From IMG/VR virus record IMGVR_UViG_637000265_000001: a stretch of DNA of 64,000 bases; one strand, given 5' to 3'. The stretch's first letter is position 1. Each line of letters begins with the position of its first letter. The position numbers were made by a program, and so were the translations under genes. Below the pieces are notes generated by a model. The model was not told the origin of the DNA, did not search any database, and was given only the letters and a program-made list of their open reading frames with translations. Positions 4,459 to 6,770 of this stretch are shown here, piece by piece. Source of the DNA: a virus. Taxonomy: Duplodnaviria > Heunggongvirae > Uroviricota > Caudoviricetes.

Positions 4459-5598
4459 TCACTCAGGGTTTATAGTTACTCTGGGGGTAGTAAACCGAAT
4501 AACATGTATCAACGGGAAAGAGGCGTCTTTCTCAACGTCAAACTCACCTGCTTTCACCTTAACGGAACCAGTAGCCAACACATCGACCACACTGATTAAC
4601 TCAAGGTCATACCCAGCAGTGTTACTATTTCGGGTCACTTTGACATCTACCGTCTTAGCGTCTTTAGTTGACCTGAAAGAGATAGAAGCGAACCGCTTAG
4701 GCAGGAGATAGATACCTGTATCATCGCCCGCATAGCTGCATACAGTGCAGCCCAATAGCTCACTAATATCCTCATGACCTGCGCGTTGAGCGGCTCGGTC
4801 CAAGATTGCCTCAAGTCTCTCAGGGACCAATACAGCGTAATCGCTCAGTGTATTTCCCAACTCGACCGGAAGATTCAACGCTAATGTATCCAGAAGATCT
4901 TCAGCTTGATCAGACGGTTTACCACTTAGTGGGGCTGCCTCAATGATTTGAAGGTCTGGCGTATCTTTCAGGACATCGACCACAGCGGCGAACATCTGGC
5001 GGCAGTATTGAACCTGCATATCACCTACAGTCTGGATTAATGCCCCCTCGGTCCAACCGCCCATCATATCGAAGTCAGATACATGAGTAGTAGCAGAACA
5101 CAGGATGCCCGTCTTATTGGTCTCAGGGTTCAACACTGGGGTGACAGTTACGCTTGCCCCTTTGATGGCTGTGGTAGACGGAGCATCCTTAGCTGGATTA
5201 AACGCGCCATTATGCTTAAAGCGGACGGTGCGATTCTGGAGAGCCTGACGGCGAATAGGCGTAGGGTCAGTGCCGTATGGGCGAAACTCACAAGGGAAGA
5301 CATTCTCCATTACAGCAGTGCGGAAGTCTCCATCATTGAAGGTCTCATCCAAAGAGTCCTCCAGCGCCTGAACAAAATCATGTGAATCATTCCCGAAGGC
5401 CATCGGACGGCCTGAGCGGTCCGTAAAGCCTACGTTGAGAACTTGGGCGTCTTGACCATTGGTCATCTGAACATAGTCAGTGCGTGAGATGTCAGTGCCC
5501 CATATAGACCCCTTAATGATTTGACCGTCTTTATCTCGCTGAGGCTGACGCAGAGAAGCCAGTGAGGATGCTTTGTTAATTTGATTTGTAATAGACAC
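4459..5598 (-). CDS. hypothetical protein, 379 aa from GTG start (alternative ATG at 5676)
   Basis: AAGGAG RBS 9 nt upstream of GTG; long ORF, Ser/Thr/Asp-rich, no family recognised. Confidence 0.55.
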   Translation of the reverse strand: MSITNQINKASSLASLRQPQRDKDGQIIKGSIWGTDISRTDYVQMTNGQDAQVLNVGFTDRSGRPMAFGNDSHDFVQALEDSLDETFNDGDFRTAVMENVFPCEFRPYGTDPTPIRRQALQNRTVRFKHNGAFNPAKDAPSTTAIKGASVTVTPVLNPETNKTGILCSATTHVSDFDMMGGWTEGALIQTVGDMQVQYCRQMFAAVVDVLKDTPDLQIIEAAPLSGKPSDQAEDLLDTLALNLPVELGNTLSDYAVLVPERLEAILDRAAQRAGHEDISELLGCTVCSYAGDDTGIYLLPKRFASISFRSTKDAKTVDVKVTRNSNTAGYDLELISVVDVLATGSVKVKAGEFDVEKDASFPLIHVIRFTTPRVTINPE

Positions 5599-5699
5599 GA
5601 TGAATATCTCCTTATGGTATGAATGCACTACGTAAAAAGTAACTGGTGACACCATTGGTCTTATCTCAGAATCCAAGCAGCGCCACCGAAAGTTATCAG

Positions 5700-6110
5700 T
5701 TACAGCCCGAAAGCGGCCCCTTTATTGCCGAAGCGTTTAATCAATGCTTCCTCTCGGGCTTTACGTTCAGCGACCGCCTTAGCAATCTCTTCTGGTGTAG
5801 CATGAATAGCAGCCATACGTTCTTGATGTGCCTTAGCTTCTTTACGTCGGCGTTCAGCCTCTTGGCGCTCCTGTGCGTTGCTTTGAGCCCACCAGCGGGA
5901 ATACTTGCCGTAATCACCTGCATCAAGACCAGCGGCGTGAATATCGTTAAGAATACGATTTGAGTTCGCCATGTCAGAGCCTGTACTGTTCAGCATGGTT
6001 GTAACGACAATTTCGGTGAAATACTTAGTGGATAGCTCCTGACCGAATACCAGTACAGTTTCTTTGTCAGCGCTCAGTGCGATATCCAGTTTGCGATAAG
6101 AAATAGACAT
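5700..6110 (-). CDS. hypothetical protein, 136 aa, with highly charged K/E/R-rich helical C-terminus
   Basis: Strong RBS AAAGGAG before ATG at 6110; C-terminal QERQEAERRRKEAKAHQER... segment. Confidence 0.55.
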   Translation of the reverse strand: MSISYRKLDIALSADKETVLVFGQELSTKYFTEIVVTTMLNSTGSDMANSNRILNDIHAAGLDAGDYGKYSRWWAQSNAQERQEAERRRKEAKAHQERMAAIHATPEEIAKAVAERKAREEALIKRFGNKGAAFGL

Positions 6111-6237
6111 GTTTGTTTCTCCTTTGAAAAGATGTTTTAAAAGGATTAAACTCATCGGTCTTCCATAGGTATTCCTACGGCGTCTCCCCGTATCTTGGTC
6201 AGTTCAAAAGGTGGTGCTAGCTGTGCTAGTGGGTTAA

Positions 6238-6432
6238 TTACATGAAATCTCTTGGGGTCAGCCCTGCGTCAACCGCCATGAGACAGAGGGCAGCTTTAGA
6301 GTAATACGGGCGGTTTTCCTTGGCAGGCAGACCCAGAGTAGCTATCAGTGCCTTGGTGGGTACCACCATCAGGCGTAACGCCTTACGGCCTTCTGGTGTC
6401 CTTGGGTCAATCTTGATTGTGTTATTAGTCAT
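6238..6432 (-). CDS. hypothetical small protein, 64 aa
   Basis: GGAGGGGA RBS overlapping the stop of the upstream gene (translational coupling). Confidence 0.45.
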   Translation of the reverse strand: MTNNTIKIDPRTPEGRKALRLMVVPTKALIATLGLPAKENRPYYSKAALCLMAVDAGLTPRDFM

Positions 6433-6435
6433 GAA

Positions 6436-6770
6436 TTACCTCCCCTCCAGCTTTGCTACTGCCTGTATGTGTTGCTGTTTAGCAGCGTCGCTTCCATGAA
6501 CCGCTATGACCTTTCTGTGCATCTTGAGTACGTTTTCAGGTCGGCTGAAGAACTCCAGCCCCTTAGCGTTAAACCGAATGTTTATACCGTTTGGGTTGAA
6601 TCGATGGTCAGTAGGTTTGATAATTCGAAAGTACTCCACATAGTTTGGATTGACTGACCACTCGCCACTGAAAGGATGTACTCGGAACAGCTTGCGCTCT
6701 TTCTTAAGGATGGTCATCAGTTTCTGAGCGGGTAGACCATTGGCCTTGCAGTAATCGCCCCAAGTCACGC
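6436..6770 (-). pseudogene. 5'-truncated gene, 111 native codons remain; N-terminus replaced by IS911 end
   Basis: Reading frame runs into the IS911 left inverted repeat at 6771; native start missing. Confidence 0.5.

Follow-up and report, generated by a model that had tools for sequence, protein, structure and literature searches.

What a block of four minus-strand genes, set between an insertion sequence (IS) and a phage lysis cassette, is doing in a prophage is the question raised by positions 4459-6770 of a viral DNA record (IMG/VR IMGVR_UViG_637000265_000001; the whole stretch of 64 kb analysed here is referred to as the window). The window region is 100% identical to Shigella flexneri 5 str. 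8401 (CP000266). Our analysis indicates that the block is part of a small integrative island that inserted into a prophage-borne tRNA gene, and that its largest gene encodes a predicted HK97-fold shell protein which, in intact relatives, stands with a constant partner behind promoters of the T7 type. The block is probably a shell module driven by a phage polymerase, triggered by T7 RNA polymerase and belonging to a T7-dependent satellite or defence island.

An earlier reading made from the letters alone (the sequence-only reading) had described four co-directional minus-strand genes, the first truncated at its 5' end, upstream of an S21-type holin. This description stands: the list of open reading frames (ORFs) contains all four in 4459-6770, and the holin belongs to PF04971 (E=5.5e-35). 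That none of the four is a Q, nin or lysis protein also agrees with the present results.

A predicted HK97-fold shell protein and its proposed partner

The largest gene of the block (4459-5598, minus strand) has a GTG start behind the ribosome-binding site AAGGAG, and its orthologue in Salmonella Typhi starts at the same GTG. Structure modelling, a check proposed in the sequence-only reading, gave its 379 aa product a fold: the AlphaFold2 model (pLDDT 70) is of the HK97 type, with the A domain, P domain, E-loop and spine helix all present, and Foldseek returned 154 viral matches at E<=1e-3, of which the top 50 listed are almost all annotated capsid or head proteins. Judging from the model, this is a previously unrecognised shell protein of the HK97 major-capsid/encapsulin fold.

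Sequence searches do not reach this assignment. The 379 aa protein has no match in Pfam, PHROGs, NCBIfam or PADLOC, the Pfam models (those of encapsulin shells included) give no family for it or for 32 homologues, a sequence profile search of the PDB returned nothing, and tblastn against 50,697 phage genomes found no homologue. In a profile search of 1.84 billion representative proteins the family came out as closed, with only 59 clusters (at 50% identity) and nothing to connect it to a named capsid family. The ~50 homologue clusters of the protein are all from Enterobacterales where the source names the organism. Two distant homologues (P0141 and P0153) end in Ig-like domains (Big_2, He_PIG), such as often decorate capsid proteins exposed on the virion.

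The gene directly upstream (5700-6110, minus strand) encodes a 136 aa DUF6971 protein with the same sequence (100% identity) as PDB 5EUR, a three-chain entry titled 'SF216 from S. flexneri 5a M90T' and associated with Kim et al. (FEBS Lett 2017). The mechanical ORF reaches 6155, and the 136 aa form is that of PDB 5EUR and of all homologues. The DUF6971 model has a small beta/alpha head followed by two long helices, with no enzyme-like fold. No segment is better conserved than its charged tail, which ends RFG.KG..AFG, even where overall identity is 41-47%; this C-terminal motif differs from the canonical encapsulin targeting peptide. A DUF6971-like gene immediately precedes the shell gene, also in high-GC relatives with only 33-35% identity in the shell protein. 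We propose that DUF6971/SF216 may be an internal scaffold or cargo partner of the shell protein.

Each of the two proteins has ~50 homologue clusters, and at informative divergence the shell gene gives a ratio of nonsynonymous to synonymous substitution rates (dN/dS) of 0.06-0.19 and the DUF6971 gene one of 0.07-0.20. Both genes evolve under purifying selection, and the homologue clusters together with the low dN/dS argue that the genes of the block are real rather than chance ORFs.

Two further genes complete the block. The 64 aa gene (6238-6432, minus strand) starts 3 nt past the regulator stop codon; its product is conserved in sequence as well as in place, with orthologues of 60-67 aa at the corresponding point of the E. 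coli, Pectobacterium, Yersinia and metagenomic islands (alignment A4), and it has no family in Pfam, NCBIfam or PADLOC. The truncated gene is the 3' remnant of a Rha-family regulator (6436-6770, minus strand; ~111 codons) with a KilAC/ANT-like C-terminal domain; its ORF spans 6436-6843, and real homology is limited to 6436-6770. The remnant gives weak ANT and phrog_10324 matches, and the intact 234 aa E. coli regulator matches Phage_pRha (E=7.6e-18) and phrog_10324, 'anti-repressor Ant' (E=1.7e-49). Full regulators have 234-239 aa, and the window copy is without the N-terminal Rha DNA-binding domain.

The sequence-only reading had offered, as one alternative, a capsid-like gene paired with a scaffold-like one. 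At the level of fold this is borne out, by the HK97 fold of the larger protein and by the charged helical tail of the 136 aa protein with its conserved motif; the pair is not, however, the head module of the resident prophage. Nor is it a degraded structural module from ordinary head operons, the outcome by which that reading would have been overturned: shell and DUF6971 genes are always found in an integrase island of ~6 kb, never in a head operon and never beside portal, protease or terminase genes.

Relation to SPI-15 and to islands with T7-like promoters

The operon is less unfamiliar than the sequence-only reading supposed, which had called it unrecognised. Besides the identity of DUF6971 with SF216, window 3995-6770 is 99.1% identical, over 2785 bp, to the distal half of an island at glyU in S. 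Typhi that fits Salmonella pathogenicity island 15 (SPI-15). The S. Typhi loci are known from their protein genes, and it is the sources of the proteins that give the name Salmonella Typhi. The window's exact DUF6971 protein, 100% identical in S. Typhi, is present in 7,418 blocks of the assembly collection. Most of these are chromosomes of ~4.8 Mb in which recJ, prfB, lysS and actS are followed by an integrase of 539 aa, the Rha protein (239 aa), a small protein of 67 aa, DUF6971 and the 373 aa protein. Between S. Typhi and E. coli, actS, a core gene flanking the island, is ~78% identical, as against 99.1% for the island between S. Typhi and the window, which argues for recent horizontal spread of the island.

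Among 5,426 complete E. coli genomes the window block is found in two, at 93% identity, in both as a small island beside the chromosomal tRNA-Gly(CCC) gene, glyU. The order there is tRNA-Gly, a 544 aa integrase, a gene-free gap of 1.3 kb, the 234 aa Rha regulator, a 67-71 aa protein, DUF6971 and a 373 aa protein. Klebsiella, Pectobacterium, Yersinia and metagenomic Enterobacterales share this architecture, so that an intact island reads tRNA-Gly, integrase, tandem T7-group promoters, AT-rich array, regulator, ~65 aa protein, DUF6971, ~375 aa protein and an 18-nt direct repeat. The integrases of the relatives are of the tyrosine type (PF00589; 530-560 aa), and the N-terminal domain of the regulator varies (Rha, Bro-N or KilA-N) with a C-terminal KilAC/ANT domain common to all. 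No replication, portal, terminase or tail genes were found in any island examined. A free circular form, suggested by many metagenomic contigs of ~6 kb, was considered and set aside, as locus L016 has chromosomal flanks and is therefore integrated.

One island departs from this setting: that of Yersinia enterocolitica (L006, 11373-16534 region) is ~13 kb, lies between pntB and pntA and is not tRNA-adjacent.

SPI-15 was named by Vernikos & Parkhill in 2006. Reviews (PMC10373206, PMC7143636) give its size as 6.5 kb, its site as glyU of S. Typhi and its content as five hypothetical ORFs, and call studies of it 'very limited'. Its size, insertion site and five-ORF content match the S. Typhi locus whose distal half corresponds to the window, and the window element appears to be the same element. 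The two differ in that the window copy lies in a prophage tRNA-Gly(UCC) gene rather than in chromosomal glyU (CCC), has neither integrase nor promoter/origin region, has lost the N-terminal half of its regulator, and encodes a shell protein with six additional C-terminal residues. The literature searched holds no link of SPI-15 to a capsid.

The same family is also known for its promoters, and the title of Chen & Schneider (Nucleic Acids Res 2006; 34:1133; PMC1380254), as it stands in reference lists, names tandem T7-like promoters. Relatives of the window element share promoters, integrase, repeats and size with these T7-promoter islands, all of which were re-derived here, whereas the window copy has lost the family-defining promoters. 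The 2006 study reportedly described enterobacterial islands of 4-13 kb in which a tyrosine integrase lies upstream of two or three tandem T7-like promoters, bounded by terminal direct repeats of 17-24 bp and with no RNA polymerase gene. It is said to have proposed that they are satellites dependent on T7-like phages, and reportedly contains no capsid fold for the largest ORF, no likeness to the phi1.1A/B origin and no PD-T7-4. Separately, a section headed 'PAI sit' in PMC7545054 cites the 2006 study on the variable S. flexneri sitABCD island, a hint that it covered a T7-promoter island near the Shigella sit genes.

Integration into a prophage-borne tRNA gene

The sequence-only reading placed the block as cargo in the Q/moron slot of a lambdoid phage. 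In related lambdoid prophages with the same holin region this slot contains Q, four tRNAs (Met/Ile, Arg, Thr and Gly(UCC)) and then the holin, and in the window a separate integrative element begins at the 3' end of the last of these. The window tracks lambdoid prophage L003, which has a complete tRNA-Gly(UCC) at the junction position, identically through the last 22 nt of tRNA-Gly; past the 3' end it is identical to the ends of islands L001 and L002 (alignment A1). These 22 nt (TCGATTCCCGCTGCCCGCTCCA, minus strand) form an attR-type junction at 3996-4017 (minus strand). A tRNA scan detected none in the window, and the rest of tRNA-Gly is absent.

In relatives, islands are bounded by 18-nt direct repeats of the glyU 3' end that enclose 6.1 kb in E. 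coli, 6.3 kb in Pectobacterium and 6.5 kb in Klebsiella. The distal repeat is kept at window 3996-4017 and the proximal repeat is lost. Between the junction and the shell gene lies a non-coding distal arm (4018-4458, minus strand), whose outermost ~100 bp (4018-4115) are better conserved between genera than any other part of the element: against the islands of Klebsiella and Pectobacterium, window 3996-4115 has 82-85% identity, as compared with 64-71% for coding regions. Positions 4018-4115 are probably an integrase-binding arm.

Because the switch from lambdoid to island sequence falls exactly inside or at the tRNA-Gly 3' end, we conclude from these alignments that the island is a separate integrative element that probably integrated into the prophage-borne tRNA-Gly(UCC) as a secondary attachment (att) site between Q and the lysis genes. 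The phage and chromosomal tRNA-Gly tails match at 23/26 nt including the T-loop (counted from the sequences), which would suit site-specific integration at such a site.

An origin as a moron or cargo operon of the lambdoid Q-to-lysis slot, or as the degraded head module of an unfamiliar phage, would account for the position immediately upstream of a late terminator-like hairpin and holin, and for the capsid-like fold. It is nevertheless very hard to credit. The phage backbone ends inside the 3' end of tRNA-Gly, with an att-type repeat at that point, and the same genes form a self-contained integrase island at chromosomal glyU, across five genera and with no lambdoid context. The absence of portal, protease and terminase neighbours and of homologues in the phage genome set speaks against it too, as does purifying selection, under which the genes are not decaying.

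An improbable but less remote alternative is that a glyU-borne island was joined to the prophage by homologous or IS-mediated recombination rather than by site-specific integration. The region has been heavily rearranged by ISs (at 1-1229 and 6771-8020, with an inverted lysis cassette and a truncated terminase), and only one of the two att junctions remains, the integrase-side junction being missing. Yet the surviving junction is nucleotide-precise at the tRNA 3' end, and its tRNA tail is that of the phage (GCTGCCCGCTCCA) and not that of glyU (TTCGCCCGCTCCA); there is no IS at the junction, and a 23/26 nt match is enough for a secondary att site and short for homologous recombination.

Serial accretion at glyU is indicated by locus L002: the first island is followed in tandem by a second, unrelated one (1838-12002; ~10 kb, with a 650 aa integrase), at whose boundary the 18-nt tRNA-Gly repeat occurs for the third time.

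IS911 and the state of the window copy

The proposal that IS911 removed the 5' end of the operon is confirmed to the base, with island homology ending at 6770 and IS911 beginning at 6771. IS911 (6771-8020, plus strand; right end approximate) is 99.2% identical to the IS911 of phages Sf6 and SfII, contains OrfA/OrfB transposase ORFs at 6807-7145 and 7437-8012, and truncates both the regulator and a P22-type large terminase gene, whose ORF resumes at 8006 beyond the IS with its 5' end lost there. The losses on the island side comprise the integrase, the promoters, the origin-like region and the N-terminal half of the regulator (everything before codon ~124). A blastn search of the window for a homologue of the island integrase found none, and the missing integrase-promoter half was not found elsewhere in the window. 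No T7-group promoter with <=7 mismatches is present in the island part of the window; a T3-promoter-like string just past the 64 aa gene (AATTAACCCACTAGC, ~6237-6220) was rejected, as it needs a 2-nt deletion, is without the initiating GGGAGA and fails the 7-mismatch scan. With the absence of promoters and integrase taken as secondary loss through IS911, the window copy is still a member of the T7-promoter island family by descent.

The window copy is thus an immobile remnant with two intact structural genes, and probably uninducible. It differs from the S. Typhi copy by few substitutions (dN/dS 0.78 on very few changes, with no clear constraint signature). An 18-nt insertion near the stop codon of the shell gene (window 4459-4480) gives the end ...FTTPRVTINPE in place of the ...FTTPE or ...FTAPE of S. 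Typhi and E. coli, and accounts for the 379 aa of the window protein against 373 aa in those hosts.

T7-type promoters and an origin-like array in intact islands

Intact islands were scanned for promoters of single-subunit RNA polymerases (T7 consensus TAATACGACTCACTATAGGGAGA, 23 nt). The promoters sit between integrase and regulator, on the operon strand. Perfect 23/23 copies of TAATACGACTCACTATAGGGAGA are present once in S. Typhi, twice in each E. coli island and once in Klebsiella, against a chance expectation for the perfect 23-mer of ~1e-10 per island. The Klebsiella island also has K11-type promoters with 2-3 mismatches, the Pectobacterium island a T3-type promoter with 1 mismatch, and the Yersinia island T7-type promoters with 1-3 mismatches.

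An AT-rich tandem array follows ~170-200 bp downstream of the promoters. An alignment of ~65 nt matches it to the AT-rich region that follows phi1.1A/1.1B in T7, with z=4.5-6.7 relative to dinucleotide shuffles in four genera. According to what is reported of work in the Richardson laboratory, tandem T7 promoters and that AT-rich segment constitute the primary replication origin of T7, and a T7-type origin would explain why no replication protein is encoded by the islands. C[CT]TAAAG motifs are clustered on one strand of the islands. The CTTAAAG arrays were considered as a mimic of the T7 terminal SRL/SRR repeats, that is, as a packaging signal; the motif is common to both, but the alignment to the AT-rich part of the T7 primary origin is better supported. 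Several other tandem arrays lie in the 16500-17600 gap of locus L002, among them GTCATCGCCTATG x3.5, CACACAGGAC x3.8, GAGACCCTAGAGA x9.7, a 36-mer x2.4 and TGGTGCTAG x6.6.

Two accessory genes also connect the islands with T7-like phages. In the islands of Klebsiella and L016 an optional DUF4145 gene overlaps that of the integrase (L005 6831-7463, L016 2170-2811); it is the anti-T7 gene PD-T7-4 (PADLOC E=6e-99). PD-T7-4 is described as a gene that 'often overlap[s] an integrase gene' (Vassallo et al.), and the T7-promoter island family appears to be its native home. The sequence-only reading had suggested a search with PADLOC for a defence system; no window protein gave a match, and PD-T7-4 is absent from the window. 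In the Yersinia island the shell gene is followed by a 45 aa ORF, a 1365 aa T7 gp16-type internal virion protein and an HNH_3 endonuclease. The gp16 homologue is full length, with an SLT domain (phrog_342, E=1.9e-272), and is 44% identical to T7/T3-like phages, which are its best match among all sequenced phages.

A phage-triggered shell module

These features can be combined into a mechanism in which the island would remain silent until a T7-like phage infects the cell. The RNA polymerase of the infecting phage would then fire the island promoters and transcribe the operon, and the same polymerase would prime replication of the island at the T7-type origin. The shell protein would assemble into a small capsid-like particle, with trimeric DUF6971 held inside through its conserved C-terminal tail. 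This particle may package the island with the portal, terminase and tail of the helper, as in a satellite, or sabotage head assembly of the phage, as in defence, or do both. In the window, the island would have entered the prophage tRNA-Gly(UCC) first and lost its upstream half to IS911 later.

Several observations weigh against this account. Beyond the presence of the T7-type promoters, we infer each of its steps. Comparison by hhalign of the shell and DUF6971 families with T7 gp10A and gp9 found no relationship, which rules out a diverged copy of the T7 head genes and makes it hard to see by what contacts a shell of other origin would join to a portal and core of the T7 type. The integrase of an integrated island stands upstream of the phage-type promoters, and so the trigger for excision is unexplained. 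No packaging signal was identified in the islands, and a virome scan recovered only four distant relatives, all in predicted prophage regions, with no free genomes of ~6 kb. The window, finally, has no T7-type promoter with <=3 mismatches anywhere in its 64 kb; with its promoters absent, the mechanism cannot operate in this copy.

The part of this account that goes furthest holds that SPI-15-type islands are true miniature satellites of virulent T7-like (Autographiviridae) phages, packaging into their own HK97 capsid of shell and SF216/DUF6971. We advance it tentatively, and regard it as possible rather than probable. A rather unlikely alternative is that the islands serve anti-phage defence only, as a mobile encapsulin-like nanocompartment or capsid decoy. 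T7 RNA polymerase would again turn on shell and DUF6971, and the products would sequester or poison T7 head-assembly components, or divert the polymerase and replisome, with the island never packaged or transferred by a phage. A small protein with a conserved flexible C-terminal tail, encoded upstream of a shell, is the cargo-shell layout of family 1 encapsulins. The islands have no portal, terminase or tail gene and no recognised packaging site, some carry PD-T7-4, a bona fide anti-T7 gene, and the virome scan found no free genomes, all of which suit a decoy. On the other hand, the T7-type origin-like array suggests amplification of the island's own DNA, for which a gene of pure defence would have no use, and the Ig-like domains of distant homologues are typical of external virion proteins. 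Identity of 99% between S. Typhi and S. flexneri, as against ~78% for flanking actS, implies recent horizontal transfer by some vehicle. The comparison with family 1 encapsulin operons is also imperfect: the island shell is ~100 residues longer and, like its homologues, is missed by the Pfam encapsulin models, the genes lie on an integrase island behind T7-type promoters, and DUF6971 is without an enzyme-like fold. A shell module triggered by T7 RNA polymerase, in a satellite or in a defence island, is the explanation we favour for the block, with the defence-only decoy as its main rival.

Neighbouring features of the window

Downstream of the block, on the same strand, are a terminator-like hairpin (3789-3774) and a lysis cassette composed of the S21-type holin, a 195 aa ORF, lysozyme and Rz. 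The 195 aa ORF (phrog_1085; 2855-3442), between holin and lysozyme, and a 172 aa ORF (phrog_3527; 1286-1804) after Rz have no assigned function. A second IS, of the IS3 family and with OrfA/OrfB, occupies window 1-1229. The minus-strand lysis cassette and island remnant (1286-6770) diverge across IS911 from plus-strand P22-type genes (from 8006), which are the truncated terminase, portal, scaffold and coat. This layout fits, as we infer, an inversion by IS911 inside a single P22/lambdoid-type prophage. No RNA family came up when positions 3600-7000 were scanned with Rfam, and a sigma-70 promoter scan in the window gave results no better than shuffled sequence.

Comparison with other small capsid-encoding elements

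The cf-PICIs (e.g. EcCI2, PDB 9gyi), a class of phage-inducible chromosomal islands, are about twice as large, have portal, protease, connectors, small terminase, AlpA and primase-replicase genes, and use temperate helpers. The T7-promoter islands, in contrast, have only shell and DUF6971, with no replication gene and with promoters for a phage RNA polymerase; none of the cf-PICI hallmark genes (portal, protease, head-tail connectors, small terminase, AlpA, primase) was found in any island examined. Closer in gene content are the 'Mini' entities of gut viromes, which are tailless, temperate, ~8.9 kb in size and of HK97 fold, with capsid, scaffold, integrase and transcription regulators (Aguilar et al., bioRxiv 10.1101/2025.06.18.659913). 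Like the islands they are small and have capsid, scaffold, integrase and regulator genes without portal, terminase or tail genes (10.1101/2025.06.18.659913). They differ in encoding RepA or helicase functions and in having been found through Pfam phage_coat/encapsulin domains, which the island shell lacks, and T7-type promoters are not reported for them.

Nesting within a prophage late region has a parallel in helper-embedded PICIs (HE-PICIs), small integrative elements nested in the late region of a prophage (PMC10111431), as the window island also is. HE-PICIs, however, insert in late genes of the lambdoid phage that is their helper, and are regulated together with it, whereas the target of the window island is a prophage tRNA gene resembling the usual chromosomal site and its presumed helper is a virulent T7-like phage. 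For these two reasons the nesting in the prophage looks accidental.

Significance

The island family itself is not new: it has been named twice since 2006, as SPI-15 and as T7-promoter islands, and one of its proteins has been crystallised, with its function still listed as unknown in the literature searched. To our knowledge, the capsid-fold assignment, the scaffold or cargo reading of SF216, the resemblance to the T7 origin, the connection with PD-T7-4 and the use of a prophage tRNA as attachment site are new in that literature. The window copy, a dead remnant, is of limited significance in itself, and the family is substantially more interesting than this locus, since it makes an old hypothesis directly testable. 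An HK97 shell gene invariably paired with SF216/DUF6971, behind perfect T7 promoters and an origin-like array, puts the 20-year-old satellite proposal within reach of experiment.

The window also indicates that tRNA genes carried by phages can serve as attachment sites for other mobile elements. If the satellite proposal is true, no known capsid-encoding satellite would be smaller than these islands, and T7-like phages would have their first. Essentially every S. Typhi would then carry such a satellite, able to nest in prophages by way of phage-borne tRNA genes. Experiments on the islands would bear on the origin of PD-T7-4 and on phage therapy and typing of S. Typhi, Klebsiella and Shigella with T7-like phages.

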